From NCBI GenBank assembly GCA_030648615.1, contig JAUSHJ010000045.1, forward strand, positions 25,071 through 89,070: a stretch of DNA of 64,000 bases. The letters run 5' to 3'. Under the pieces are notes generated by a model. The model saw only the letters and a program-made list of their open reading frames with translations. It had not been told where the DNA came from and searched no databases. Below are positions 1 to 63,508 of the stretch, one piece after another. The position numbers were made by a program, and so were the translations under genes. Source of the stretch: Candidatus Micrarchaeota archaeon (GTDB lineage Archaea > Micrarchaeota > Micrarchaeia > Anstonellales > Bilamarchaeaceae). The first letter of the stretch is position 1. Each line of letters starts with the position of its first letter.

Positions 1-219
1 GATCAATGCTCGTACGACTTTCTTTATCATTTCAGGGTTTCCTTTTTTCACTGAAGCAATTATAATATCCCCAATGCCTATTGATGGATTTCTTGAACGT
101 ACTCCTTTTGTTCCGAGTGTACCTATTACGAATAGTTCTTTTGCACCACTATTATCATTGCAAACCAGATATGAACCGGTTGTAAGACCTTTTGTAATTT
201 TTGCTGTGAGTCCCTTCAT
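1..219 (-). CDS. rpl14: 50S ribosomal protein uL14 (3' part cut by window edge)
   Basis: Reverse-strand translation from ATG at 219 gives MKGLTAKITKGLTTGSYLVCNDNSGAKELFVIGT..., typical uL14; follows S17 as in the conserved spc cluster. Confidence 0.8.
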   Translation of the reverse strand, partial: MKGLTAKITKGLTTGSYLVCNDNSGAKELFVIGTLGTKGVRSRNPSIGIGDIIIASVKKGNPEMIKKVVRALI

Positions 220-3786: not shown

Positions 3787-4491
3787 TCACCTTAGCTGCT
3801 TATTTTGCTTGATATTTGACTCCGAATGTTTCACCTTAGCTGTCTGTTTTGCTTCGGATTTTGCATCATGTTTTACTTCTGATCTCGTATCATGTTTTAT
3901 TTCTGAATGTTCATGCTTTTCTTTTGTATCAGATGCCTCTAATTTTGTATCGTGAACATGTGGTTTTGCTTCAGTTTTAACTTCCTGTTTTGGATCTGGT
4001 TTCTTTATGTCAACCTTCTTCAAAGCTCCAGGAGTCCCTTTAAGGACTATTTCAATTCTAGCAGTGGAAAAGTTTTGTTTCATCTTTCTTCCTTTTGCTG
4101 ATAGTCTACCATAAATCATTTTGGTATTTGCTGCTGCATGAACTACAATAAGATCATTTTCACCAAAACCCTTAACGCGTGCATTTGCAATGGCACTTTT
4201 CACTACTTTTAATACTGCAGCTGCGGCTTTCTTTGGATATCTTCCTTGTCTTCCTCCCAATTCTCTTCTGTGCCCAAGATTCTTATTATGACGAGCAAAT
4301 AAAATTGGAATTTCTCCTTCTGCAGCTTTTTCCAAAAATGCAACAACTCTATCAGCTTTTTTCTGAGTTATTCTACCGCAAACCTGTGAAAGATCTCTTG
4401 TAGATGCATCTACTCCTTCCACTCTTGCGAATGCGAAGGAATTGATATCCTCTTTTGTTTCAAATGAGTAACTTTTTGTCATAATCATCAC
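3787..4491 (-). CDS. rpl22: 50S ribosomal protein uL22 with ~80-aa K/E/H-rich C-terminal tail
   Basis: N-terminal ~150 aa is the L22 fold (GRITQKKADRVVAFL...); C-terminus is low-complexity KHD/KSE repeats. Confidence 0.85.
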   Translation of the reverse strand: MMIMTKSYSFETKEDINSFAFARVEGVDASTRDLSQVCGRITQKKADRVVAFLEKAAEGEIPILFARHNKNLGHRRELGGRQGRYPKKAAAAVLKVVKSAIANARVKGFGENDLIVVHAAANTKMIYGRLSAKGRKMKQNFSTARIEIVLKGTPGALKKVDIKKPDPKQEVKTEAKPHVHDTKLEASDTKEKHEHSEIKHDTRSEVKHDAKSEAKQTAKVKHSESNIKQNKQLR

Positions 4492-4889
4492 TTTAGTGGT
4501 ACGAACTTGCTTCCTCTTGTTGCACCTACACCTGGACCAGAGTGTAATACTCTTCCGATAGTGTGCGAGAAGTCGCCGAGTCGTTTACCTACCTTATCAT
4601 ACGTAATTTCAACTGGTTTGAAATCTTTTCCATTATGAACGCCAAATTTTAACCCTACCCATTCAGGTATGATTACTGCATCTCGAACGTGAGTTCGTAT
4701 AACCTTCTTTGGATTCGTAGTCATAACTTTCTTGACTTTTTCCATGAACTGTTTCAGTCGAGGATTATTACCGAGTCTTTTAAGAGTCCTTCTATTTCTA
4801 GAAGTGGTCATTTTCACGAAATCATCCATTGAAATGGATTTGACATTTTCTGCATCAATACCTTTGAAAGTTTCACGTCGCATTATCAT
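4488..4889 (-). CDS. rps19: 30S ribosomal protein uS19
   Basis: 133 aa; GKDFKPVEITYDKVGKRLGDFSHT core; 4-nt overlaps with both neighbours. Confidence 0.9.
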   Translation of the reverse strand: MIMRRETFKGIDAENVKSISMDDFVKMTTSRNRRTLKRLGNNPRLKQFMEKVKKVMTTNPKKVIRTHVRDAVIIPEWVGLKFGVHNGKDFKPVEITYDKVGKRLGDFSHTIGRVLHSGPGVGATRGSKFVPLK

Positions 4890-5641
4890 TCACCTTGAGC
4901 GGCATCCATTGCCTTCTTTGATTTTCTTCTTCCAGTACTTCTGGCTGCTATGTGTCCTACCTTAGAACCTGGAGGTGATCCTCTAGCAATAGTAGTTGGC
5001 TTACCAACGTGGTGCTGTTTACCACCATGTGGGTGGTTATATGCAGACTGGTGAACCCCTCGGTTCATTGGCCAGCGTCTGTGTCTTGCAGTAAACTTAT
5101 GGAATGAATTTCCTGCTTTAAGCATTGGTTTATCCAATCTTCCTCCGCCAGCTGCGACACCAATTTGTGCACGGCATTCGTTGGAAATTATTATTGTTGT
5201 CTTACTTGGCAACCTTAGATATACTACATCATTTTCTTTTGAAATTATATTTGCATAACTTCCTGGTGCGCGAACCATCTTGCCGCCGTCACCTGCATTT
5301 CTTTCAATATTAAATATATAAGCGCCATCTGGAATTCTGTAAAGAGGCAGTACACTCCCTAATAATAGTCTTGCCTGTGCACCGACTTCAATATAATCAC
5401 CAATTGCAATTCCTTCTGGTGCTAGGACATATCCTACTTCACCATTATCATAACGAACACTAATAAGTATGGTATCTCTTGCTGGGTCATCGACTAATTT
5501 CAAAACTTTTCCTCTAAGTACGCCTGTCTTTTCAAGATCATCGTAACTTCTATAGTTCAAATCAGTCTTGAATCTACTTGTTGGAGCAATGTAACGCGGA
5601 CTTGCTGAACCACGTCTCTGTTGTTTTAGTCTCTTACCCAT
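4886..5641 (-). CDS. rpl2: 50S ribosomal protein uL2
   Basis: 251 aa; C-terminal MNRGVHQSAYNHPHGGKQHHVGKPTT... L2 signature. Confidence 0.95.
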   Translation of the reverse strand: MGKRLKQQRRGSASPRYIAPTSRFKTDLNYRSYDDLEKTGVLRGKVLKLVDDPARDTILISVRYDNGEVGYVLAPEGIAIGDYIEVGAQARLLLGSVLPLYRIPDGAYIFNIERNAGDGGKMVRAPGSYANIISKENDVVYLRLPSKTTIIISNECRAQIGVAAGGGRLDKPMLKAGNSFHKFTARHRRWPMNRGVHQSAYNHPHGGKQHHVGKPTTIARGSPPGSKVGHIAARSTGRRKSKKAMDAAQGE

Positions 5642-6720: not shown

Positions 6721-7665
6721 CTATTGCTTTGAATCCAAAGAAGTATAGTTAAGCTGTGGCTCCTTGAATGCTGGAGAACGAACACCTAATCTTAATTTCA
6801 CAAGTCTCTTTGGTGGACCTGGCACTGAACCATGTACTATTATGTAATCATTTCTTACAAAACCATAGTGAGGAAAACCATCTTTTGGATTTATTTCTTC
6901 TACTTTCTCACTAATTTTCATAATTTGCTTATTCAACTCAGTTCTTTTATGATAACCAGTTTGACCAGCTTGTGGAACAGTGTAAAGTACGTAAGCAGGA
7001 TGCCACTGACCCAAAGTACCTACGTGTCTATATTTACCTGTTGCTTTTCTTCTTTGCTTGGCAATACCAAATCTTTTTACAGGACCTTGCCAGCCTTTAC
7101 CTTTTGTAATAGAAACAATATCTACGAATTCACCATGCTTGAAAACATCTTTTGCTCTTATTTCTTTGCCAGCCAATGTTTTTGCATATTCGATTTTTTC
7201 ATTGACATCTTTTCCACCAATACCAAGTTCCATTCTTTCAATGTGCTTCTTGCCTATCTTGGTTTTTGATGGCTGTACGAAAACTAGTAAACGAACATCA
7301 TTAACAGATTCTACTTTAACTTCCTTTTGCTGTAAAGGTTTTTTTATGTTGAGTAATTTTAATACAGTAGCATCTGCAGTTAAAACATCTGCAATTGAAT
7401 CCATGCCATCGTAGCATCGATAACCATATACTTGTATTGGTGGCACTTCAATTACCGTTGCTGCACCAGTTAGCTCCTGACCTTTTGTAGGAGATTCTCT
7501 GTGATCTATATATGAAATATGAGTCATTCCAACTTTATATCCTGCAAATCCTAGAACACGTTTTTGTTCTTCGTCCTTCCAGTAAACCCTAGGGTTCTGA
7601 CTAGCTGCCCTTTTTCTTGGACGGAATGCCATACTACCTCTGCGCGGTCTTCTTAAGTCTGTCAT
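6721..7665 (-). CDS. rpl3: 50S ribosomal protein uL3
   Basis: 314 aa; PRRGSMAFRPRKRA N-terminus and FGIAKQRRKATGKYRHVGTLGQWHP motif; first gene of the cluster. Confidence 0.95.
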   Translation of the reverse strand: MTDLRRPRRGSMAFRPRKRAASQNPRVYWKDEEQKRVLGFAGYKVGMTHISYIDHRESPTKGQELTGAATVIEVPPIQVYGYRCYDGMDSIADVLTADATVLKLLNIKKPLQQKEVKVESVNDVRLLVFVQPSKTKIGKKHIERMELGIGGKDVNEKIEYAKTLAGKEIRAKDVFKHGEFVDIVSITKGKGWQGPVKRFGIAKQRRKATGKYRHVGTLGQWHPAYVLYTVPQAGQTGYHKRTELNKQIMKISEKVEEINPKDGFPHYGFVRNDYIIVHGSVPGPPKRLVKLRLGVRSPAFKEPQLNYTSLDSKQ

Positions 7666-7694
7666 TGATAAAACACCTTATGTTTTTGAAATAT

Positions 7695-7775
7695 CCCAAT
7701 TGTTGCAATGCAACAATGGGCATCTTGTCGCTCAACGCGACAAGCTTGTTGTCCGTTAGGACAATTCATATGAAT
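7695..7775. repeat. hairpin-cluster repeat element, copy 1 (upstream of the ribosomal operon)
   Basis: cccaattgttgcaatgcaacaatgggcatcttgtcgctcaacgcgacaagcttgttgtccgttaggacaa: three consecutive TTGTYG/CRACAA stem-loops plus the AATGGGCATCTTG linker. Confidence 0.8.
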
Positions 7776-18112: not shown

Positions 18113-18175
18113 ACCTCAAACTTTGTTTGAGGACCGACAAATCGAAGTTTCGATTTGTGGTCCACAAAATGCCAC
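18113..18175. repeat. hairpin-cluster element, copy 7 (short; between the rpoB halves)
   Basis: cctcaaactttgtttgagg, caaatcgaagtttcgatttg and gtggtccac: three adjacent perfect inverted repeats. Confidence 0.6.
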
Positions 18176-18235
18176 TAGCATTTTGTAGGATTTTTGAACA
18201 ACAGTTCAATCAATCCTCATTAATGAATATTATTT

Positions 18236-22459: not shown

Positions 22460-22538
22460 ACGCGATTCCAGTCGCTCTCGATTGTTCTGTGGAACAATGG
22501 GCATATTGTCGCCGTAGCGACAATCATGTCGCGACAGC
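22460..22538. repeat. hairpin-cluster element, copy 2
   Basis: ttgttctgtggaacaa, then tgggcatattgtcgccgtagcgacaa, then tgtcgcgaca. Confidence 0.75.
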
Positions 22539-23208: not shown

Positions 23209-23327
23209 TTTATGAAGAAAAACATGTTTTGGGGCGATCTTCAAATACGCAGTATTTGAACGAGCTAGAGAGCGACATTTGCTCTCTGGACAACCGCCCT
23301 TTTGATTAGTTGAGCTAGAGCAATAAA

Positions 23328-37618: not shown

Positions 37619-37642
37619 CGAGAAATCACCGCGTGCATTTCC

Positions 37643-37726
37643 GATTGTTCGATGTTTCGAACAATGGACATATTGTTGCGTTGCGCAACAATCTTGTCGA
37701 GACATTTGTCCTGCATGGGACAAATC
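37643..37726. repeat. hairpin-cluster element, copy 3
   Basis: ttgttcgatgtttcgaacaa, then tggacatattgttgcgttgcgcaacaa, then ttgtcctgcatgggacaa. Confidence 0.8.
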
Positions 37727-37854
37727 GTAAAGTCGCCATTGAGTATTAAAGAAGCAATCTTTATAAAGTTTTAGAGAGCAAAAAATTACGTTAGAATGAT
37801 AAACTAGTTCAATTAATTCAGAAACTAAGGCGATTTACCAAGGGGGATGGAACA

Positions 37855-41179: not shown

Positions 41180-41193
41180 CTTTGCAGACCACT

Positions 41194-41316
41194 CCCAATT
41201 GTTCGATGTTTCGAACAACACGATTGTCCGGCGTACCGGACAATGTGCGCATTGTCGCGCTCGACAATTGCGTGGGCATATTGTTGCGTAGCGCAACAAT
41301 AATGTCGTGGCGGCAG
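41194..41316. repeat. hairpin-cluster element, copy 4 (longest; between convergent genes)
   Basis: cccaattgttcgatgtttcgaacaa, then ttgtccggcgtaccggacaa, then ttgtcgcgctcgacaa, then tgggcatattgttgcgtagcgcaacaa. Confidence 0.85.
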
Positions 41317-43353: not shown

Positions 43354-43515
43354 GAACTCAAGGACAAGGATTAAATATATTGCTGAAAAAGGACAAAATA
43401 ATAAAAATTTTGTCCTGTTGTAAATTCTTATAGAATTTACAGTAGAACTAGAAGCCCCAGGATTCCAAATCTGGAACCTGAGACCCTAGAACCTATATTT
43501 ATTGTCTAGCAACTA

Positions 43516-44847: not shown

Positions 44848-44980
44848 CTCAATTGTCCAATATTTTGGACAACATTATTGTCCAGCGGGACAATATGCAT
44901 CTTGTTGCTCATAGCAACAAGCTTTGACGCATCTGCGTCAAATTTTGTCAGGATTTTTATCATCCTGACAAAGCTTGTCT
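44848..44980. repeat. hairpin-cluster element, copy 5
   Basis: ttgtccaatattttggacaa, then ttgtccagcgggacaa, then atgcatcttgttgctcatagcaacaa, then tttgacgcatctgcgtcaaa, then ttgtcaggatttttatcatcctgacaa. Confidence 0.85.
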
Positions 44981-44985
44981 ACCAA

Positions 44986-46035
44986 CTATATTAACTTAAT
45001 TAACCCTCTTCCTATTTCTGGAATATTCCCACCGAGCAGACTAGTTGTTGAAAGTACGAATGAAAAAACTATTACCATTGAAATCATTGGCAAGAAACAT
45101 ACTGATACGGTAAGTTGTTTGAGAATTGCAGGCGAAAGGACATTGGTCAATGAATCTATGTCGCCCCTGTAAGCATTAATCCATGAATTAACCTCATAAA
45201 CTTTTGATGGATTAGCATAGCCACAGTATTGAACTTCTTCAAGAGCAGGTAATGCACATACGTAAGCCACTGGATTATGAGTAATAGAATTAGAAACAGC
45301 GGTTGGATCAGCTAAAGTGGGTTGACCCATAAAACTTGGTCTTATAACAGGCAAAGAAATCGCTGATGAGATAATATAGGTAAACGGAAATATAAAATAC
45401 AACCCTAAAGAAAGCGCCATAACATAACCTCCTGCACCTCGAGTAGGTGGAAATGCACGAAGAATAACACCTAAACTTAAAATGAAAAGACCATATGAAC
45501 CTATGAACTTAGATATGTGAATAAGCAGATAATAAAAAAACATGTAGAATTGTGTTAATTCTGTGGCATTTTTTATGCGCTCAGCAAGTATCTTAAAACC
45601 AAAACCGCTTGCATGCTCACTCATGAATATTTCCATATATACAGATGTACCGGCTTCAACTGGTATGCTAGCGACATAGAGAGAACGCATTAAAGTTCGA
45701 GCACATGCTGCTGCCGGATCCATGTACATTATCATAATATCAGTAAGATGTGTACCAGGAGGAAAAACAATCTGACCTGGAAGTAAGCCTACTGAAGTTG
45801 CATAAAGATTCGTAGCTATACTTACTAGCATGCTCTCTCCGCCTGTGACAAATGTAATTAACATGAGAACTATAAAAACAGTTGAAATTGCATAAATAAG
45901 TTCAGTTTTGGCTGTCTGCTCAAGATTTTTTAGATCAAAGACTTTGGAAAACATGTATACTATTGCTGAGGCTATGATAGCTACCATGGAAACTGAAATA
46001 GCAATACCTTCCCAACCTACCACGTATTCTACCAT
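44986..46035 (-). CDS. polytopic membrane protein, FPPTR-loop family member P6
   Basis: 349 aa; N-terminal transmembrane helix, YMFSKVFDLKNLEQTAKTELIYAIS, loop ILRAFPPTRGAGGYVMALSLGLYFIFPFTYI, C-terminus GGNIPEIGRGLIKLI. Confidence 0.7.
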   Translation of the reverse strand: MVEYVVGWEGIAISVSMVAIIASAIVYMFSKVFDLKNLEQTAKTELIYAISTVFIVLMLITFVTGGESMLVSIATNLYATSVGLLPGQIVFPPGTHLTDIMIMYMDPAAACARTLMRSLYVASIPVEAGTSVYMEIFMSEHASGFGFKILAERIKNATELTQFYMFFYYLLIHISKFIGSYGLFILSLGVILRAFPPTRGAGGYVMALSLGLYFIFPFTYIISSAISLPVIRPSFMGQPTLADPTAVSNSITHNPVAYVCALPALEEVQYCGYANPSKVYEVNSWINAYRGDIDSLTNVLSPAILKQLTVSVCFLPMISMVIVFSFVLSTTSLLGGNIPEIGRGLIKLI

Positions 46036-46036
46036 T

Positions 46037-47266
46037 TTATATCAGCCTCGTAAGTGAATTGACATCTATTTCTTCGCCCAATGTCTTACTAAGATATTTA
46101 ACACTTTGAACAAACAATAATACTTGGAATGCAGGTAATAAATAGCCTATTACCAGTCCCATACCAACAGTAGCCATAGGTATTAGAAATGCGGTTGTTA
46201 CAGCAGCACCGAAAGCTACGGAAATCAGTTTACCTATCATGTCCAAAAAGCCAACGGTAACATTTTTGAAAAAATCAAAAATAATATCTCCCGTGTTCTT
46301 GGACTGTTCTTTTAGCGAGTCTGCTTTAGAATCTACAGTATGTGCAGTAAGGCCATAGATAGTAACACTTGCAAAATTATTTATATTATTATCGTAGACG
46401 TTTATTATGGAATCACTAGTTGTGAACAGCATTATGTATGAGGCATTTACATAGAGAGGATAAAGAAGCATGAAACCTATGGCTAACGCTATCAACGTCC
46501 CACCAAATCTACGAGTTGGAGTAAAACAGCGGAGAAATATACCTATTGGAAGATAATATTTTAGACAAGCTGCAATGGCAAATTTTAGTACGTTCAACTG
46601 TGCGATATTAATAATGAGTGCAATTGCCAGTGAAGTAAAAACATTGTAAATCATTTGTTTTAAAGGTGCGGCAAAACCAGCACCTGGAGTAGCAACTATA
46701 CCTACACCCAATGGTCTTGAATATGGAGTAATGGAAGCTAATTGATCGAGCCAAAGGTTTAGTGCATAATTAACATGCATCCAACCTTCAATCTTATCTG
46801 TTATTGAAGTGAAATATTTTTCAGTAGTATCATAAAAACCTAAACTACTGATAGCAGGATCAGTAATACTGGGAAAAACTGCCCCTAGCGTAAGAGAACA
46901 CATTGGAACCATGGCAGCTATGAAAGAACCTACAATGATTACACTTGCAAAAACTTCAAATAATTCTAATTTTACAAAACTTCTAATAGTATCAGTTTTA
47001 AAAAAATAGGAAAACATGTAAAGAAAAGTCAACAGCATGATAGATGCTACGATAGCTAATGGCCAAAATGGGACCCAGGTAGTCCAGAAATCTGAATCGG
47101 CAGCACCTTGAGAGCATATGAAAGCCTGGAGAGAAGAATTTGCAGGTGCACCTCCTTGACCACCTGTGGATGGTGTAGAACTCAGCCCTTCCATAGTACA
47201 ACCTGAAAGCAAAAGTAGAATTGCAAATGAAAGGACATAGAATAGTTTTTTAGTCATCATATCCAC
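46037..47266 (-). CDS. polytopic membrane protein, FPPTR-loop family member P5 (lipoprotein-type signal)
   Basis: 409 aa; LLLSGC lipobox, YMFSYFFKTDTIRSFVKLELFEVFAS, loop FLRCFTPTRRFGGTLIALAIGFMLLYPLYV, C-terminus EIDVNSLTRLI. Confidence 0.7.
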   Translation of the reverse strand: MDMMTKKLFYVLSFAILLLLSGCTMEGLSSTPSTGGQGGAPANSSLQAFICSQGAADSDFWTTWVPFWPLAIVASIMLLTFLYMFSYFFKTDTIRSFVKLELFEVFASVIIVGSFIAAMVPMCSLTLGAVFPSITDPAISSLGFYDTTEKYFTSITDKIEGWMHVNYALNLWLDQLASITPYSRPLGVGIVATPGAGFAAPLKQMIYNVFTSLAIALIINIAQLNVLKFAIAACLKYYLPIGIFLRCFTPTRRFGGTLIALAIGFMLLYPLYVNASYIMLFTTSDSIINVYDNNINNFASVTIYGLTAHTVDSKADSLKEQSKNTGDIIFDFFKNVTVGFLDMIGKLISVAFGAAVTTAFLIPMATVGMGLVIGYLLPAFQVLLFVQSVKYLSKTLGEEIDVNSLTRLI

Positions 47267-48537
47267 CTTGCAAAAGACATAAAGTTAACATCCACACTCA
47301 ACCAACTCGCCACTTCTCTTGCAAATGTCAGAGTCGTAAAAATATTTATGAATGGCAATAATATGCTTATTATAACGATATAATAAATCGCACTTCGTAT
47401 GAGTTCAAACGCGGTGGTAAGTCCTGCACCTATAAAGAAAGGCACGAATACCCCAGCAGCCAGGAATGAGATTGAAACTACAGTAAGTCCTACTCCCAGA
47501 AGGCCGCTATTAGTTACAAAATCAGTCATAATGCTCTTCTGCGACGTTACATCTACACCTAAACTATACTGAAGAATAGTATGTGCTTCATGAGTTACTA
47601 AAAACATAAACGGATACATTATCGCAAAACTAAAGAAAAGCGCTAATATTGCATCTCCAGCACCTCGTAGTGGTGGAATTGCCCTTAGAACTACACCTAG
47701 AGGAATGAAGAATGTCCATGTCCATTTTTTTATCATGCATAGCATGACTAAATGTATTATCCACTCACCTAAACCTACGGAAAGAAGCTGCATTGTAAAA
47801 CCCAGCATATCGACTATGGGCTTAAGTATTGGACCTAAATTAAATGAAAACATAGCACGCCAGGTTATTCCAAACCACATGGTAGCACTGAAAAGAGTAT
47901 GAATTATTGTATTGTATATCAAAAGAAAACCATAGGCTGAAGAAATTTCAGCTATCATTTGCCTGGAAAATGCCATAGATGCATCTATCATCGTATTCTG
48001 CTGGAGAACTGGATCGGTAGTGGTAAATGTTTTAAATCCATACCAGGTTTGACTTGCTTGCATAAACATAACTATGAATAGCAAAGCCAGAACAGTCCTG
48101 CCAAGTTCAAACATCAAATCCTTTGATACAGCAACAAGATTCTGAGACTGAAACAATTGACTAAACATGTAAATCAGGATTGCAACAAAAAGCACAATTA
48201 GCACAGACATGATGACATAGTTAGTCCATTCTGCACCGAATATGGTTAAATATTCTTTTGGAACACCTGGAACAGTAGAAACCCAGGATGTACCGCAACT
48301 ACCTGGGTCCACAATATCATAAATAGTACTTGCTGCAGCATTTGCTTGAGCACCCCCTCTTGTAAAACCAGGAATGTCATTAACGAATTTACTTATGGTG
48401 TCAATTATACCAGTACTTGGAGGGGGTGAAGTCTGCGCAAATGAAATTGTAGAAAGCAGTAGCACTAGTGCAACCACGAAAAATATTTTTTTGTTATCCA
48501 GTTTGTAATTCATAGAATCATCAGTTTGCTTTGACAT
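47257..48537 (-). CDS. polytopic membrane protein, FPPTR-loop family member P4 (signal peptide; start uncertain)
   Basis: Start at MSKQTDD (48537) or MNYKL (48513); the longer listed ORF runs into a hairpin repeat; loop VLRAIPPLRGAGDAILALFFSFAIMYPFMFLV. Confidence 0.65.
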   Translation of the reverse strand: MSKQTDDSMNYKLDNKKIFFVVALVLLLSTISFAQTSPPPSTGIIDTISKFVNDIPGFTRGGAQANAAASTIYDIVDPGSCGTSWVSTVPGVPKEYLTIFGAEWTNYVIMSVLIVLFVAILIYMFSQLFQSQNLVAVSKDLMFELGRTVLALLFIVMFMQASQTWYGFKTFTTTDPVLQQNTMIDASMAFSRQMIAEISSAYGFLLIYNTIIHTLFSATMWFGITWRAMFSFNLGPILKPIVDMLGFTMQLLSVGLGEWIIHLVMLCMIKKWTWTFFIPLGVVLRAIPPLRGAGDAILALFFSFAIMYPFMFLVTHEAHTILQYSLGVDVTSQKSIMTDFVTNSGLLGVGLTVVSISFLAAGVFVPFFIGAGLTTAFELIRSAIYYIVIISILLPFINIFTTLTFAREVASWLSVDVNFMSFARWI

Positions 48538-48552
48538 CTTTGATGTCAAATA

Positions 48553-48636
48553 TCCCAATTGTCGTTTGACGACAATGGGCATCTTGTTGCTTCAAGCAAC
48601 AAGCTTGTGTCAGCATTTTTCTGCCCTGCTGACAAT
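48553..48636. repeat. hairpin-cluster element, copy 6 (inside the membrane-protein array)
   Basis: cccaattgtcgtttgacgacaa, then tgggcatcttgttgcttcaagcaacaa, then ttgtgtcagcatttttctgccctgctgacaa. Confidence 0.85.
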
Positions 48637-48678
48637 GCTCTGCTGTGCAAATCTGTAAAGTAACATAGTTACTTCACA

Positions 48679-50034
48679 TCATATAAGGTGTGTTAAACCA
48701 GCTATTTCTACATCTCCACCCAAAGTTATTGAAATACTTCTTATTGCTGCAATGGTTGCAAGAACTCCGAAGAATGAAAAAAATACAGAGAAGAAAGTTA
48801 ACCTTGACACAACATCCATTACTCCACCGTCTTCAAGTGAAATGGATACGAAATTATCATAGAATTTTTTCTTTCCCAGATTACCTGTAAATGTAGTACC
48901 AACACCTTGTAACTCTTTTAAGTCAGCATCACTCAACTGATTCGTACGAGCAGTTAGATCTGCATCACCATTAGGTAAATTTAGATTAACACTTGGGAAA
49001 TAACCATCTGGAGAAGCACCATCTGCAATTTTATCTCTTGTAACTTGAGGCTCAACTCCAACTAAACTATAATAATCAAGCTGCTGCTGATTGAGGTCGT
49101 AACTGCCAGTGAGAAGTGGCACTTTACCGTTTATATAAAGATGATCTGCAATAGATGGGATATTATCAGGACCAAGGTATGCGGCATGCTGTATAGAAAT
49201 GGCTAACATTGCACCAAAAACATAGAACATAGGAAATATATAGAATAGTGCAAGAGCGATAGCCATGAGCAAACCCCCAAGACGCCTAGTAAATGAAAAT
49301 GTCCTAAGTACAAGACCAACAATGAAGAGATTTGGAAATAGTGCCTTTGATACAAAAGCTATTAGTATTTCCTGAAACTTGGTAAGCGTCATCATCTTCA
49401 TAGCAAAATCAAACCCAGCAGTCTTCATCGCATTACCCATGGTAAAAAAACCACGCCAGGGAGTTATGGTGAAGAAACCTGCTTTGTCAGTAACGAATTC
49501 GATATTTATCGCAAAATCAGCTATTGTTGAAGTAATCATGTATGATTGATAAATCTTAAATGCAACGTTTGAAGTTTCTTGGAAAATAGTATTTAAATAA
49601 TATATGGAAAGACGAATATGGCAATGAGGTATGTCAGCATAGGGAGAAACTGAACTAAGTGCAAGTGGATCTGCAGCTCTATCGTAATTAGTACCTGGTG
49701 CAAATGAGCATATATCCTGAGTTACATATTTACCTGGATTTGCAGCATCTGGAAAAAACCCTTGAGTAAGATACGAAGGATTAGACCCAGAGGAATCGTG
49801 CAATATCCCATAAGCAACACTGTCAAACATACCTATCCAAGAGAAAACTGCAGCAAGAAGAATCAGTGAATAAAATATTTCAAACAACTCTAATTTTGCC
49901 CATAGTTTCATCTTGTCATCTACAAGAACACTACCGAACATATACACCAGTGAGACTAGCACGGTACTTATTACCACTAATATGACCGCAACGAAACTCC
50001 ACGAAGAATATAATGCAGTTAGTGAATCAACCAT
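48679..50034 (-). CDS. polytopic membrane protein, FPPTR-loop family member P3
   Basis: 451 aa; YMFGSVLVDDKMKLWAKLELFEIFYS, loop LVLRTFSFTRRLGGLLMAIALALFYIFPMFYVF, C-terminus GGDVEIAGLTHLI. Confidence 0.7.
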   Translation of the reverse strand: MVDSLTALYSSWSFVAVILVVISTVLVSLVYMFGSVLVDDKMKLWAKLELFEIFYSLILLAAVFSWIGMFDSVAYGILHDSSGSNPSYLTQGFFPDAANPGKYVTQDICSFAPGTNYDRAADPLALSSVSPYADIPHCHIRLSIYYLNTIFQETSNVAFKIYQSYMITSTIADFAINIEFVTDKAGFFTITPWRGFFTMGNAMKTAGFDFAMKMMTLTKFQEILIAFVSKALFPNLFIVGLVLRTFSFTRRLGGLLMAIALALFYIFPMFYVFGAMLAISIQHAAYLGPDNIPSIADHLYINGKVPLLTGSYDLNQQQLDYYSLVGVEPQVTRDKIADGASPDGYFPSVNLNLPNGDADLTARTNQLSDADLKELQGVGTTFTGNLGKKKFYDNFVSISLEDGGVMDVVSRLTFFSVFFSFFGVLATIAAIRSISITLGGDVEIAGLTHLI

Positions 50035-50038
50035 AGTA

Positions 50039-51034
50039 TCAACTACTTTTTCCAGATAGGAATTTCATAAATGCGTTTATAAACGCAAGAGTTATCGTCG
50101 CTGAAAGGGCAGGAATAAATAAACTCGGTATTGATAACGCCCCTAGCGATTCTATTATGGGAAAGAAAAATGCTGGAGTTGCTATTATATTGACTCCGAA
50201 TTCTGAGAAAAGAAACTTTACAAATGGGGCAATAATGGGAATTCTTCCAAGTGGATTTTGATTATTACCAAGAACACCGAACAGAACCCATTGACCGCCA
50301 CAAAGCATAGTAACATCAAAAGTTTTTCCAGAATATATCTGGTCAGGCTTAGGGAAACCCATCAGTTGATCGTTATAAACCTGCATACTCAGGATATATG
50401 TAAGTGGAAAAACTGACTGAAAACCTATTGCTATGGCTATCAGAAATATACCTGCCTGTCTAGTTGGTGGAAAGAACCTTAGAATAATACCTGCTGGAAA
50501 TACAAACGGCAGCAATATGGCATCGATGATGACGAAAATAGTAGACTGTGCGGTAAGGCTCCCGTAAACTGCTATAAGTCCGTAGCCAACAACATTAGTT
50601 ATGGAAACCAGAGAATCTATACCTGGAAATAGTTTATAAGACAGAGTAAGTACGTACTCCCCAATACGTCTTTGGAAAGTACTAAGAACAGAAAGGCATA
50701 CCTGAGCCCTGAAAACATCAGTTATGGCATTTTGAGTACTCTCTCTTATTTGATAGATATAACCTATGGCAATATCTATGGCAGATTGAGAGGAACCACC
50801 CCCAACAATATCTGAAGCAACTGTGGAAGCAATGAAATTAGAAGATTCTAAGAAAGCTATGGAAAATATTACTATCAACAATGAGACAAAAACCTCTTGA
50901 AGTTCTATATTGAAATATGCTTCCAGTTCATTAGACTGAGTAAGTTTAGCTGCCATATAAGTAAGTGCTAGGAAAATAGTCATGATGAAGCCCATGATGA
51001 ATATTACCCAACCGTAGATAGCTATGTCAACCAT
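50039..51034 (-). CDS. polytopic membrane protein, FPPTR-loop family member P2
   Basis: 331 aa; YMAAKLTQSNELEAYFNIELQEVFVS, loop ILRFFPPTRQAGIFLIAIAIGFQSVFPLTYI; lacks the shared C-terminal tail. Confidence 0.7.
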   Translation of the reverse strand: MVDIAIYGWVIFIMGFIMTIFLALTYMAAKLTQSNELEAYFNIELQEVFVSLLIVIFSIAFLESSNFIASTVASDIVGGGSSQSAIDIAIGYIYQIRESTQNAITDVFRAQVCLSVLSTFQRRIGEYVLTLSYKLFPGIDSLVSITNVVGYGLIAVYGSLTAQSTIFVIIDAILLPFVFPAGIILRFFPPTRQAGIFLIAIAIGFQSVFPLTYILSMQVYNDQLMGFPKPDQIYSGKTFDVTMLCGGQWVLFGVLGNNQNPLGRIPIIAPFVKFLFSEFGVNIIATPAFFFPIIESLGALSIPSLFIPALSATITLAFINAFMKFLSGKSS

Positions 51035-51036
51035 TT

Positions 51037-52704
51037 TTACACCAATTTTGTTAATCCTGCTATTTCAAGTTCCCCACCTATTATGGCTGCAACATTTCGA
51101 TACATTGTAATTGTAAATATTATTTCTAAAACTGAAGTTATTATTATTAATACGATCAATTGAGAAACGGTAACTACTTCATCTATAATGAATTTATAAA
51201 GCCCAGAAGTAGATGCAGATGGGAAGAAAGGATTATTTGATAACGGATGGTGAATTACTTCTGCCATTGCACCTACAAATCCGGAAGTCATAGACCACAT
51301 AAACTTGCCTATGGTAAAAATATTATCCGTTGCAGCTGACAGAACACCTCCAAAATTAGATATGAGTTTCTTTCCGCTACACAGAAGACCCCAGAAACCG
51401 CTTCCGCATGCAGCCTGAACCTGGAACTCAGTTAATGTTTCTGATGCGAATTCATCTGTAAGCTCATCTTTTTTGTGTTCAGTTTCAATATCTACAAGTT
51501 CCTGTATTTTAGCTGGGTCAGGATTACCTAGCGGACTTATGGTTTTCGGAACATAGTTGAAATCTGCGGGTTTATATACATCAAATATCAAATAATTTGA
51601 AAAAAGAACTGAAAGCGGATATACATAAAATACTACGAACGAAATTGCGATAAGGCTCGAACCGGTTTTTCTTGTCATTGGAAAAGCTCTGAAAACTATA
51701 CCCAGAGGCAGAATTATCAGGGGGATTATATCTCTTGCAAAACCAAGAATTATTTGTTTTGCCATGATCGCAGTTATTACAAAACCTATTGCTTCTACAA
51801 CAACCGTATGTGCGTTACTCAGAAGCACAAGCCCGTCATAGGGCATAAATGAAAATGTGACTAGATTTACCAAAGGCAATGGAGAACCTAGAGGAAACGA
51901 TAAAGTTGAAAGAAAACCTATGAGGACTTCAAATAGATAAAGCTGGCTATAGGTAGCACGCATCTTTTCGAATAGTATATCAAGAGCTGCACTTGCAAGA
52001 TAAATGTGAGGAGAAACTGAAATTTCTGGACTTGTGGCATGGGCAGCAATAGCATCACCAACATTTGGTGAACCTGCAGTCAATATGCCAACTATCAAAT
52101 TAGGCAAATATGCATTACTTGCAAGCCAAAACCAAACTATAATCACGCTGAATATTGTTGCGGCTAGTTCTTCCTTGGCTATGGCACTTAGGGGTGGATG
52201 CTGAAAGAAATATGCCATCATGTAAGTGGCTGCTGTTATGAGCATGCAAAGCGTTATGGATTTGAGAACTGGGAGATATATAAGACTAAACATCGACGGA
52301 ATACCAGAGTCTGGATGCTCTATACCTTGAAGTGCGACAGTTGTGAGAATAGGGCTAAGTACAAATGCTATAATTGCAGCAAAAAGTGCTCCCAAAAGTA
52401 GATTGTGAGACCATACTACAGCACGTGCCCTAGTTTCTGCGCCTGATAACTGACCGACAACATAAACTAATGCTGCGAACATTATCATCATCATTATGCC
52501 GATGGGAACCCAGGAGCCATAAAGGTCAAAAAAGGCACAAATCTCATATGAAACCGTACCTGGTACGGGAGCATTTATTCGGTGTAAATTACAAAAATCT
52601 TCAACACCCTGGGCGGAAACGATATTACTAACAGAAATAAGAAAAAATACGATAAGAAATAATTTTGTAACTGTACCTGAGGGTAGAATAACACGATCTG
52701 CCAT
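51037..52704 (-). CDS. polytopic membrane protein, FPPTR-loop family member P1 (signal peptide, largest)
   Basis: 555 aa; signal LFLIVFFLISVSNIVSAQG, loop IVFRAFPMTRKTGSSLIAISFVVFYVYPLSVL, C-terminus GGELEIAGLTKLV. Confidence 0.7.
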   Translation of the reverse strand: MADRVILPSGTVTKLFLIVFFLISVSNIVSAQGVEDFCNLHRINAPVPGTVSYEICAFFDLYGSWVPIGIMMMIMFAALVYVVGQLSGAETRARAVVWSHNLLLGALFAAIIAFVLSPILTTVALQGIEHPDSGIPSMFSLIYLPVLKSITLCMLITAATYMMAYFFQHPPLSAIAKEELAATIFSVIIVWFWLASNAYLPNLIVGILTAGSPNVGDAIAAHATSPEISVSPHIYLASAALDILFEKMRATYSQLYLFEVLIGFLSTLSFPLGSPLPLVNLVTFSFMPYDGLVLLSNAHTVVVEAIGFVITAIMAKQIILGFARDIIPLIILPLGIVFRAFPMTRKTGSSLIAISFVVFYVYPLSVLFSNYLIFDVYKPADFNYVPKTISPLGNPDPAKIQELVDIETEHKKDELTDEFASETLTEFQVQAACGSGFWGLLCSGKKLISNFGGVLSAATDNIFTIGKFMWSMTSGFVGAMAEVIHHPLSNNPFFPSASTSGLYKFIIDEVVTVSQLIVLIIITSVLEIIFTITMYRNVAAIIGGELEIAGLTKLV

Positions 52705-56180: not shown

Positions 56181-57200
56181 ATGTTATTCGCAAAAGTAAG
56201 AAAAAATATAGGTGAACGTGTAAGAAAGGAGCTTTTGCACAGAGAAGTTCTTTCAGCTAATTATAAAGTAAAAACAGATAATCATTTTGTCTATTTCCCA
56301 GTAACACGAAAAATAAATTTACATGGAGTACATTACATAACCATAGTTGTTGAACCTCAAAAGAAAAAACCAAAAAGTGTCGTTGAATATCTTGAAGAGA
56401 AATACGGGAAAACTACTACACAACAACTTACAAAGTCATTTGATATTGTAGGAGACATTGCGATAGTAGAATTACCTGAACGACTGGCACATTTTGACAG
56501 CAAAGTTGCAGAAGCAGTAATTGCGATACACCCCAATATTAAAGTCGTTGCGAAGAAACTTGGTGCGATGTCTGGAGAATTTCGCGTAAGACCGATGAAA
56601 GTAATTTATGGGGAGAATCGCACAGAAACGATACACCGAGAAAATGACTGCCTAATGAAAGTAGATGTTGCAAGAGCGTATTTCTCCGTAAGATTAAGCA
56701 CAGAAAGAATGAGAATTGCAACTTTAGTTAGAGAAGGTGAAAACGTACTAGTTATGTTCTCTGGTGTTGCACCATTTGCACTGGTGATCGCAAAAAGAAA
56801 ACCGCACACAAAGATAGTATGTATAGAATTAAACGAAGTGGCAGTGCAATATGCAAATGAAAATGTCAAGTTAAATAAATTTTATAATATAGAAAATATT
56901 TGTGGAGATGTTAAAGACGTTATACCTGAAAGATTTTTAAATTGGGCAGACAGAGTAGTTATGCCACTGCCAAAAACTTCTAATGAATTCCTAGATGTTG
57001 CATTCAAAGCTGCGAAAAACGGTGCGATGATACACCTATACCACATAGGTGATTTTGAGAATGCAGAAGAACTGATCCACAAGGTAGCAAAAGAAAATAA
57101 TGCATCTGTAAATATAACTGGTCATCACATTGTAAGACCCTACGCACCTAGGCTAGATCAGATTTGTGTTGATTTCGTAGTTAGGAAAAAAAATCAATAG
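56181..57200 (+). CDS. trm5: tRNA (guanine37-N1)-methyltransferase Trm5 (Met-10+ family)
   Basis: 339 aa; SFDIVGDIAIVE motif, Rossmann SAM-binding VLVMFSGVAPFALVIA. Confidence 0.8.
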   Translation: MLFAKVRKNIGERVRKELLHREVLSANYKVKTDNHFVYFPVTRKINLHGVHYITIVVEPQKKKPKSVVEYLEEKYGKTTTQQLTKSFDIVGDIAIVELPERLAHFDSKVAEAVIAIHPNIKVVAKKLGAMSGEFRVRPMKVIYGENRTETIHRENDCLMKVDVARAYFSVRLSTERMRIATLVREGENVLVMFSGVAPFALVIAKRKPHTKIVCIELNEVAVQYANENVKLNKFYNIENICGDVKDVIPERFLNWADRVVMPLPKTSNEFLDVAFKAAKNGAMIHLYHIGDFENAEELIHKVAKENNASVNITGHHIVRPYAPRLDQICVDFVVRKKNQ

Positions 57201-58051
57201 ATTCCAGCCAGCAATCCAATCAGGAAAAACAATAACATTCCAAGAACAAGCGGTGGCAACGCAGGCAGAACTAATTTTTTATTTAAGAACAAGTGAAGAA
57301 AAACTAAAAGTGAAACGGTTGCACCTAGAAAAACCATAATGACTGCATTGAAACCAAATGGCAAAACCGAAACCTCAAGCATTATCGGAGCAATTATATC
57401 CCCAGTACCTAAATCTATTCTGTGTCGTTTTCCTTCAACAAACCTTGGAGTACCTTCAGCCGTTTGTGCAGTGATTGTAAAAGCAAGATCTTTTTTTATA
57501 ATAAATTCGGCCATCTCCACCATGTGTTTTGTGGTGAATACTGCCACAAAATCATATAGTGAAAGCAAGACCAAAAACAAGACTGCAGGAACGAGACCAA
57601 ACGATATACCAAATATTGCACCTACCCCTGCCGTAGCTAATACGGCTGCTGCATTCTTTGCTTTTGGTAAAACAAATTTTATGGCTGCAAATGCAAGCCC
57701 GGCAGCAATTCCAAAGGTAGTCGCATAACCATAGTCAAGAAAAATGCGTGAGATTGCATAGAAAACAATTGATGACGAAGTTGAAATCATAAAAAATTCA
57801 AGAAGTCTAAATAATATTTCGTGAGTTTTGAAAAACCTGATCATGATTATTATAAAAACTGCACCTATTAGGATGAAACCAAAATAATACAATGCGTTTA
57901 TCGGTTCATTTATATCTTCATTAACTGCAAAAGAAGCTACGTAGGGATTTGCTAATGTATCGTTCAGAATTATTATTCCTGTATAAATGCCCATTAACTG
58001 GGCAACTATGAATAATACTAGCAGATTGAATATGAGTTTCATATAATCCAT
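57194..58051 (-). CDS. presenilin/signal-peptide-peptidase homolog (A22 intramembrane aspartyl protease)
   Basis: 285 aa, ~9 transmembrane helices; ordered catalytic motifs LSLYDF (YD), LGTGD (GxGD), LPALPP (PAL). Confidence 0.75.
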   Translation of the reverse strand: MDYMKLIFNLLVLFIVAQLMGIYTGIIILNDTLANPYVASFAVNEDINEPINALYYFGFILIGAVFIIIMIRFFKTHEILFRLLEFFMISTSSSIVFYAISRIFLDYGYATTFGIAAGLAFAAIKFVLPKAKNAAAVLATAGVGAIFGISFGLVPAVLFLVLLSLYDFVAVFTTKHMVEMAEFIIKKDLAFTITAQTAEGTPRFVEGKRHRIDLGTGDIIAPIMLEVSVLPFGFNAVIMVFLGATVSLLVFLHLFLNKKLVLPALPPLVLGMLLFFLIGLLAGIY

Positions 58052-62868: not shown

Positions 62869-63450
62869 TTACTTCTCCCTGACTGAACCAGTTATGGCTG
62901 CACTTGCTTGTCTCCATACACTTTGATCAACATCGTTGTCAAAATTGTACCAAACCACAAATTGGCCTCGGAAATCTCCACCCACTGCAATTGAAACAGG
63001 AGTTGATGGAGTACCTGGTTTAGAAATACAATCAACAGTTGGAGAATCGGAACCAGTCAAAAATTTGACGCTTCCACCTGCAGGTACATTTAAGTCAGAT
63101 ACGAATTTTGTTCCCCAATTCCTTTTTACATCTCCAATAGCTGCATTAGTACAAAGAACCTGATGTACTTTAACATTCTGGCCTTGTTGATTAAACATTT
63201 GAATGGAAACTTTAACTACTCCGCCTTCATTGAATATCGTTGGCTTAGTGTCACCACAGCTCAAACCCGGTTGTGAGAACAAGCAGTTTTCAGGTGGCTT
63301 AAAGAATTGTCCAGATAGGAACCACAATGCGGCCAATACAATTACTATGACTAAGATTGCCCAACCATAGGTCATGAGGTATTCCATCGCCGCCTGTCCT
63401 TTCAGGTGGCGAGCTTTGAACGAATTGTCGTTCAAACTAATGGCAGCTTG
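62869..63450 (-). CDS. archaeal type IV pilin-like protein (class III signal peptide); start uncertain
   Basis: KGQAAMEYLMTYGWAILVIVIVLAALWFL is the canonical prepilin-peptidase-processed signal (cleavage after KG) plus hydrophobic pilin helix; the listed ORF start at 63498 adds 30 residues and a hairpin repeat. Confidence 0.7.
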   Translation of the reverse strand, partial: QAAISLNDNSFKARHLKGQAAMEYLMTYGWAILVIVIVLAALWFLSGQFFKPPENCLFSQPGLSCGDTKPTIFNEGGVVKVSIQMFNQQGQNVKVHQVLCTNAAIGDVKRNWGTKFVSDLNVPAGGSVKFLTGSDSPTVDCISKPGTPSTPVSIAVGGDFRGQFVVWYNFDNDVDQSVWRQASAAITGSVREK

Positions 63451-63460
63451 CCCGCGCAAA
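63416..63460. repeat. hairpin element, copy 8 (within the pilin 5' region)
   Basis: ttgaacgaattgtcgttcaa perfect 8-bp inverted repeat followed by aatggcagcttg (linker-like). Confidence 0.55.
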
Positions 63461-63508
63461 GAATTGTTTTTCTTTATTTTATTACTATACATACACAAAT
63501 CACCTACA

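Follow-up and report, generated by a model that had tools for sequence, protein, structure and literature searches.

TTGT/ACAA hairpin clusters form a mosaic family of palindromic repeats in the intergenic DNA of a micrarchaeon

Hairpin clusters between the genes of the window

The window, i.e. the whole 64-kb stretch of DNA analysed here, is archaeal with a GC content of 36% and has among its genes those for ribosomal proteins, RNA polymerase subunits, MCM, a Pab1020-type RNA ligase and Alba. The Micrarchaeota, symbionts with reduced genomes that have not been cultured, have very little DNA between their genes. Within the window, a single repeat family, built from clusters of short hairpins, fills at least a third of the longer intergenic spacers. 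It is a genuine repeat family with six copies, which start at 7694, 22476, 37639, 41193 and 44848 and, for the sixth, cover 48530-48634; all are intergenic and lie on the plus strand.

A mechanical search for perfect TTGT...ACAA hairpins with a stem of at least 6 finds 19 in the window, 18 of them inside the six clusters, while re-simulating the window with a first-order Markov model yields about 2 on average and never more than 6. The linker ACAATGGGCATMTTGT has 9 matches with up to 3 mismatches at seven places, six of which are the six clusters; shuffling leads to an expectation of 1.2, and none of 100 shuffles reaches 9. Matches on both strands occur in two of the six clusters, with the plus strand always the best. 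This is further supported by a covariance model of the two-hairpin core, which recovers the six window copies (7694, 22476, 37639, 41218, 44872 and 48553) at E values of about 3e-10 to 4e-20 and has no other match under E = 0.2 in the window. Folded as single-stranded DNA, all six copies are far better than shuffles (z -3.5 to -10). The window copies lack the near-identity that recent copy-and-paste would leave.

A preliminary description of this DNA had counted eight copies, of which these six are upheld by model, linker and hairpins and two are not. The cluster at 18113-18175 is strong (z -8.1), but its feet read ACAAA...TTTGT and the model returns E = 0.48; it therefore belongs to another hairpin family. 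This second family occupies 18114-18186 between the split RNA polymerase B'' and B' genes and comprises CCTCAAAC..GTTTGAGG, ACAAATCGA..TCGATTTGT nested in GGACC/GGTCC, and ACAAAATGC..GCATTTTGT. Locus L143 has a related cluster (GACCG...GGTCCACAAATCGAAAATTCGATTT) at 345-403, upstream of L3. The other discarded candidate, at 63416-63460, has one good hairpin and a linker-like remnant but is missed by the model, and we regard 63415-63460 (plus strand, one 9-bp hairpin, linker-like TAATGGCAGCTTGCC, z -2.5) as a doubtful degenerate relic. It overlaps the 5' end of a minus-strand ORF (62869-63498) whose product, with its class III signal peptide (KGQAAMEYLMTYGWAILVI), looks similar to archaeal type IV pilins. 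At this 5' end RGQAA...KGQAA stand on either side of the hairpin at 63415-63436, which suggests that a short stretch was inserted or duplicated in frame, or else that translation starts at a TTG within the hairpin.

The earlier statement that all copies lie at operon boundaries is correct as to their intergenic position; however, the copy at 48553 is located inside an operon and the copy at 37639 between a promoter and a start codon. The operon in question (44986-52704, minus strand) consists of six tightly packed genes encoding 555, 331, 451, 418, 409 and 349 amino acids. None of its products has a Pfam domain, and the gene order is kept in the Micrarchaeota loci L147, L148 and L150 and in the contig ERZ27297570.

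Modular anatomy and covariation

Alignment of 19 distinct cores, 4 from the window and 15 from other sources, yields the form TCCC-R-ATTGT[top]ACAAT-GGG-CATM-TTGT[top]ACAA-GCTTGT, with GC or TC before the last TTGT. The hairpin foot TTGT/ACAA is conserved and the variable parts are a top of 2-5 bp and a loop of 3-5 nt, while CCC-GGG pairing spans the bulged R. The single-stranded linkers are fixed: TCCC-R on the 5' side, GGGCATM from the first hairpin to the second, and GC/TC ahead of the following one. The core is often extended by more TTGT...ACAA hairpins, one with a conserved T-rich loop; clusters hold 2-5 hairpins of 16-29 nt. Two downstream modules follow in constant order, hpX (TTGACRCG...CGYGTCAA) and hpY (TTGTCAYGA, a ATTTTTTTGCCC-like loop and TCRTGACAA); both are present in window copies 5 and 6 and in loci L132, L137, L143 and L144. 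The BIME-like anatomy proposed before, a mosaic of hairpin modules and fixed linkers, is thus what the copies display.

Copy 1 (7694-7764) reads TCCCA, hairpin P2 (7699-7717, with CCC/GGG closing), CATC, P3 (7724-7744), GC and P4 (7749-7764); it scores 77 bits (E 3.8e-20) with the model and z -6.2 as single-stranded DNA, and adjoins a TATA-like box of the minus-strand L3 operon, the L3 ATG being at 7665. Copy 2 (22476-22529; 62 bits, E 7e-16) separates the plus-strand genes for GATase and Ogg and consists of TCTCG, P2 (22481-22498), GGGCATA and P3 (22505-22524), its CCC/GGG closing stem containing one T.G pair. Copy 3 (37639-37727; 69.7 bits) comprises TTCCG, P2 (37644-37665), GGACATA, P3 (37672-37692), TC and P4 (37704-37725), the change from CCC to TCC being compensated by GGG to GGA. 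On one side it has a conserved TATA box, CTTTATAAAG (~37770), and on the other the start codon (37618) of the gene, which runs on the minus strand. In copy 4 (41193-41301) the TCCCA/TGGG clamp holds three hairpins (41199-41218, 41223-41244 and 41251-41268) instead of one, and then come the usual CATA and second hairpin, P3 (41279-41301). The model matches 41218-41273 and 41277-41299, and the predicted fold is a multiloop closed by CCCA/TGGG (z -7.5); the copy separates the genes for RNA ligase and GNAT, which converge, and begins 14 nt past the ligase stop codon.

Copy 5 (44848-44972; 47 bits, E 1.4e-11, fold z -10.0), between two minus-strand genes, is a long form with five hairpins: the first at 44853-44872, the second at 44876-44895, P3 at 44901-44921, hpX (TTTGACGC...) at 44923-44942 and hpY with its T-rich loop at 44944-44972. 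Copy 6 (48530-48634; 74.7 bits, fold z -8.0) begins with an hpX-like hairpin (48530-48550) and continues with TCCCA-P2 (48558-48576), CATC, P3 (48583-48603), GC and hpY (48608-48634), whose loop is TTTTTCTGCCC. The inserted segment that carries it (48514-48678) has an extra hairpin at 48658-48674.

All six window copies share one polarity: TCCC...GGGCAT reads along the plus strand, irrespective of which way the adjacent genes run. Six of six on one strand has a chance probability of about 3%, and cumulative GC skew does not change sign across 1-64000.

In the alignment 98.8% of the cells are paired, six pairs are changed on both sides, and one inner position has 10 T-A and 9 C-G pairs with zero mixed. 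The covariation score is matched by none of 500 shuffles, and slid controls drop to 30-46% paired, which bears out the claim of a repeat family whose stems stay complementary although their sequence changes. The clamp takes part in this, with the compensatory TCC...GGA in one window copy and CTC...GGG (the T.G pair) in another.

Selection on DNA or RNA structure had been proposed on these grounds. The structure is confirmed; maintenance through a single RNA strand is not. Only 6 of 478 pairs in predicted stems are G.U on the plus strand (1.3%) and 3 of 493 on the minus strand (0.6%), and the minimum free energies reveal no consistent asymmetry between the two strands. Near-pure Watson-Crick stems and equal folding of both strands therefore argue for maintenance at the level of DNA palindromy. 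Orientation relative to the neighbouring genes is mixed, as copies are found antisense within co-directional pairs, sense, divergent and convergent. Taken together, the data point to DNA-level palindromes rather than to a strand-specific functional RNA. A role as sRNA genes, also suggested earlier, is unlikely because some copies begin 15-24 nt past a stop codon, leaving no room for a promoter of their own, and because the orientation to genes varies.

Database searches are in line with this. Rfam 15 has no match at gathering thresholds across the window, nothing relevant at E<=1 in 12 loci and nothing at E<=10 on single copies; a tRNA scan finds none. Nor does the searchable literature describe a family like this TTGT/ACAA hairpin mosaic, and the earlier remark that no such family has been described agrees with both. 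The neighbouring genes (L3, GATase/Ogg, Alba, RNA ligase/GNAT, DUF4349, GDH, epimerase, dCMP deaminase, RnfD-like, AbiEi) share no function, and the idea of a riboswitch or regulon was dropped. Mixed orientation, unrelated neighbours, the Rfam negatives and strand symmetry thus speak against a strand-specific RNA gene or riboswitch-like element. Peptide coding was rejected by inspection of the aligned cores: with inner hairpin lengths of 8, 9, 11 and 12 nt, the reading frame is not kept from copy to copy.

The repertoire of hairpin tops is small (TGC, TGCG, CGC, TCGA, CC, TC), and one hairpin, e.g. TTGTTGCGTTGCGCAACAA, is found at P2 in some copies and at P3 in others across genomes. Among the loci usable for an alignment of type-A copies (L120, L140 and L117), L120 and L140 have identical flanks and differ in the P2 top and the P3 loop. 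In several loci (L073, L121, L134 and the group of L117, L120, L126 and L140) the core is the tip of a longer, enclosing palindrome that differs in sequence from locus to locus. This enclosing stem, which would create a three-way junction, reaches significance in 6 of 17 copies, none of them from the window, and was therefore discarded as a universal feature; the subfamily is read as insertion into, or module exchange within, other palindromes.

Locus L126 holds two copies tail to tail, 3-58 (plus) and 77-135 (minus), 18 nt apart. In one of them the feet, normally invariant, are swapped compensatorily (CTTGT/ACAAG, TTTTTGGC/GCCAAAAA) and the linkers GGGCATC and GCTTGT are kept.

Distribution, insertion sites and flanks

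Outside the window, the core is also found in four Micrarchaeota MAGs and in about ten families of metagenome contigs. A scan with the 16-mer linker over one genome per species, a query so short that its matches are mostly chance, led to five loci with full architecture from these four MAGs. A more specific pattern identified 17 true copies in JGI/ENA metagenome contigs and 0 in IMG/VR viral contigs, and a viral origin was rejected on this basis. The host contigs have 36-45% GC, and comparable proteins are 45-72% identical to those of the window. Four related Micrarchaeota loci (46 kb) contain 0 TTGT-foot hairpins and no model match below E 0.04; one of these loci encodes a protein 73% identical to a window protein. 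Since the core is present in distant genomes and missing from these four related loci, the distribution is wide but patchy. The linkers are extremely conserved over this deep divergence; conservation of unpaired linkers across genomes of 36-45% GC could equally well reflect a host function.

Comparison with relatives reveals empty orthologous sites, and the elements are clearly insertions relative to related genomes. The spacer of copy 6 (165 nt, 48514-48678) splits the six-gene operon, while in L150 (GCA_023247775.1) and the ENA contig ERZ27297570 the orthologues share an ATGA overlap. A 418-aa protein with 100% identity (P0241) confirms 48513 as the gene start. The ends of the insert are not common to other copies, and in this one delimited case there are no terminal inverted repeats. 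Under protein-guided alignment ATGAT (5 bp) is found at both junctions, MAFFT preferring another register, so that a 5-bp target duplication is possible.

For copy 3 the distance between promoter and ATG is about 150 nt in the window and 30 nt at the orthologue in L148, with TATA box and flank conserved; the copy is absent from the homologous promoter region of L148. Similar GCGAYYTT-like stretches stand on both sides of it; they were not upheld as a target-site duplication, the comparison genome being too diverged for a decision. The 3' flank of the RNA ligase gene is likewise free of the element in L148. In locus L120, conversely, an element is present where the two orthologous genes of the window overlap convergently. 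Upstream of L3, relatives with 91% and 82% L3 identity contain hpX and hpY and no core.

The preliminary description had named as its main counter-explanation that the copies are fragments of a known IS or MITE with terminal inverted repeats and target-site duplications. We found neither terminal inverted repeats nor a transposase in the ORFs scanned. Pfam detects no transposase, integrase or HUH domain, and no cognate nuclease, in the scanned window ORFs of at least 100 aa (about 60 of 76), the remainder being mostly ribosomal-protein genes known from the locus annotations and ORFs nested in longer genes. No tnpA or tnpB is encoded in any sequence examined.

The L120 element is part of an 808-nt segment (4250-5057) between convergent orthologues of the window genes 57194-58051 and 56181-57200. 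The segment includes an unannotated ORF of about 145-210 aa with no Pfam match and a full type-A element, next to which lies an "empty" palindrome, CCCGCTGC-TT-GCAGCG inside CCACAAATTGT.../...ACAATTTGTGG. It may be a small mobile island.

In four copies the GGGA end is immediately next to a TATA-like box (GGGATATTT or GGGAAATATA). The gene-proximal edge reads GGGATATTT(C/G) or GGGAAATATA at window positions 7666-7694 and 48551-48553 and in loci L137 and L134, resembling the TATA boxes of first-in-operon genes such as ATATTTACAAAAA upstream of 10661. By this resemblance, elements may carry or adjoin an outward-facing promoter.

Three short-read Logan contigs of SRR13727527 (L001, L146 and L149), the sample that also yielded the MAG proteins of the window, end at 41239, 7694 and 44871, respectively; identity to the window was verified end to end for L001 and L149. 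Contigs ending at or inside elements are expected because repeated sequence breaks short-read assembly, and the repeats probably fragment Micrarchaeota assemblies.

Known repeat systems and competing explanations

REP-like systems and their enzymes are essentially bacterial, and an archaeal counterpart without RAYT would suggest a new partner protein. The family shares with the REP/BIME elements (REPINs) of Enterobacteria and Pseudomonas short extragenic palindromes with a conserved foot, clustered in mosaics with fixed linkers (PMC2817692, PMC3116915, PMC3733652), folding of both strands, placement between genes in any orientation and a patchy occurrence among relatives. Its hairpins of 16-29 nt, 2-5 per cluster, compare with the 20-40 nt palindromes in mosaics of REP/BIME. 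REP sequences, however, are marked by a GTAG/CGTC tag (PMC3733652), whereas the foot here is TTGT/ACAA and the tag is found in none of the 19 aligned cores. REP stem tops follow one consensus, while here they differ between copies, and the hairpins are themselves palindromic, so that the alternating orientation of REP/BIME does not arise. REP occurs in bacteria whose genome has a RAYT (Y1 HUH) gene with REPs on both sides, at more than 100 copies per genome, compared to six copies in 64 kb of an archaeal host. As the tag is missing and RAYT has not been reported in Archaea (PMC6006769), the family is not a member of REP.

Transposase-free palindromic repeats, some of them inside other palindromes, are known in archaea (PMC3119063). 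The PATE/SMR elements of Haloquadratum walsbyi are similar in their archaeal host, non-coding size, palindrome-based build, lack of inverted terminal repeats and heterogeneous copies (PMC3119063). SMR-A elements insert within PATE palindromes (PMC3119063), resembling the cores at the apex of enclosing palindromes in L073, L121 and the L120-type loci. PATEs have one near-terminal palindrome per end, like IS605 ends, and a 4-6-nt 5' targeting sequence without target duplication (PMC3119063), in contrast to the 2-5 tandem hairpins and conserved linkers seen here, and the 5' flanks of 15 copies share no common oligonucleotide. In its anatomy the family does not fit PATE and probably does not fit the classical MITE. 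BOX elements of Streptococcus pneumoniae (boxA-boxB(n)-boxC) are likewise modular with a variable internal number and extensive secondary structure, and have been judged parasitic yet slow-moving (PMC3049150). They too are intergenic and co-transcribed with their neighbours, but their modules are bacterial, sequence-conserved and 45-59 nt long, without hairpins of conserved foot and variable top.

The terminal repeats of parvoviruses and AAV are T-shaped hairpins and the attC sites of integrons are folded sites; both are structural analogues only. The likeness to AAV and attC lies in two small hairpins inside a longer palindrome (copies in L120, L140, L073 and L121) and in an extrahelical base, the bulged R of CCC-R-ATTGT, that gives the folded strand polarity. 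Here, in contrast, there is no gene context of replication or recombination, the enclosing stem is optional, and the copies are chromosomal, dispersed and non-coding. The TTGT/ACAA family thus resembles REP/BIME, BOX or PATE/SMR in kind and, with no counterpart in Rfam or the searchable literature, is new as a family.

We consider it most probable, at roughly 0.55, that the clusters are non-coding, non-autonomous mosaic palindromic DNA repeats of a subset of Micrarchaeota that gain and lose intergenic sites. In DNA, most plausibly in its single-stranded state, the modules would be extruded as hairpins or cruciforms, and a putative trans-acting, structure-specific protein would recognise feet and linkers and copy or move units into intergenic DNA. 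What keeps the arms complementary would be processes acting on the DNA (intrastrand template switching, or conversion among copies) and not selection on an RNA. Once inserted, elements would be co-transcribed, fold either way and incidentally punctuate or stabilise transcripts. Where an AT box (GGGATATTT) or a Shine-Dalgarno-like sequence forms the edge nearest the gene, this may be why the copy is tolerated there. A more specific and speculative proposal, to which we give a minor share of credence, is a hairpin-directed DNA transaction system in DPANN archaea whose enzyme is neither RAYT nor a classical DDE transposase. Such an enzyme might read the TTGT/ACAA foot together with the GGGCAT/GCTTGT linkers on single-stranded DNA at the replication fork and insert or swap modules, which would explain identical flanks with different tops, shifts in module position and copies on one strand. 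Alternatively, the host could have domesticated the elements as a polar chromosome-punctuation signal.

Selection might instead act on the transcripts, if the hairpins and the unpaired GGGCAUC and GCUUGU form a structured RNA that serves in processing, stability or termination punctuation or as a protein platform. Covariation including the compensatory changes in the CCC/GGG clamp, single-stranded linkers highly conserved across distant genomes, a T5-T7 run in hpY on the plus-orientation strand and the subset in which an enclosing stem of unrelated sequence builds a three-way junction would all fit, and some copies are in regions that must be transcribed, inside the operon or in a 5' leader. 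We nevertheless hold an RNA to be rather unlikely, as G.U pairs amount to about 1% and the two strands fold equally, orientation to the host transcript is mixed, several copies have no room for their own promoter, Rfam returns nothing even at E<=10, orthologous sites of relatives lack the element, and the enclosing stem is found in 0 of 6 window copies. Less probable still are arrays of double-stranded DNA sites for a dimeric regulator or nucleoid protein that reads ATTGT...ACAAT upstream of core promoters. From raw ORF calls, the TCCC end faces a divergent gene start at a distance of about 8-190 nt in 11 of 17 copies, 2 of these 11 starts being inferred from over-extended ORFs; in the 4 cases inspected in the sequence itself, 14-28 nt separate GGGA from the ATG, and the TATA-like box that adjoins the element in four copies would suit such sites as well. 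Simple dimer binding is unlikely, however, because the half-site spacing varies from 8 to 14 nt and the inner bases are always mutually complementary, which independent half-sites do not need. Some copies, moreover, separate genes that converge (41193, L121, L140) or are placed within an operon, and the adjacent genes have no common function.

Equally improbable to us are degenerate, PATE-like ends of IS200/IS605 elements, which a Y1 HUH transposase would mobilise while the DNA at the replication fork is single-stranded. Replication-coupled single-strand insertion predicts the placement of all six window copies on one strand, and the elements are hairpin-based and without terminal inverted repeats; moreover, IS200-type TnpA is the sole Y1 subclass reported in Archaea (PMC6006769), where haloarchaeal PATEs provide a precedent (PMC3119063). 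The family departs from it in the many tandem hairpins in place of one subterminal hairpin per end, in the opposite orientation of the L126 copies and in the missing conserved 4-6-nt target 5' of the copies. A 5-bp flanking duplication, should it be real, would be unexpected for the mechanism, and tnpA and tnpB are absent as described above.

For practical use the family offers a strain-typing marker, and it probably accounts for breaks in Micrarchaeota metagenome assemblies. The insertions in the operon and between a leaderless promoter and its ATG can be regarded as natural experiments on how archaea tolerate structured inserts in transcripts. Evidence for a dedicated enzyme, or for a polarity tied to replication, would make the family far more significant.

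Adjacent pairs of perfect hairpins that are unrelated to the family are also present in other intergenic spacers, at 43390-43441 and 23240-23287 (e.g. AGGACAAAAT..ATTTTGTCCT and TGTAAATTCT..AGAATTTACA).
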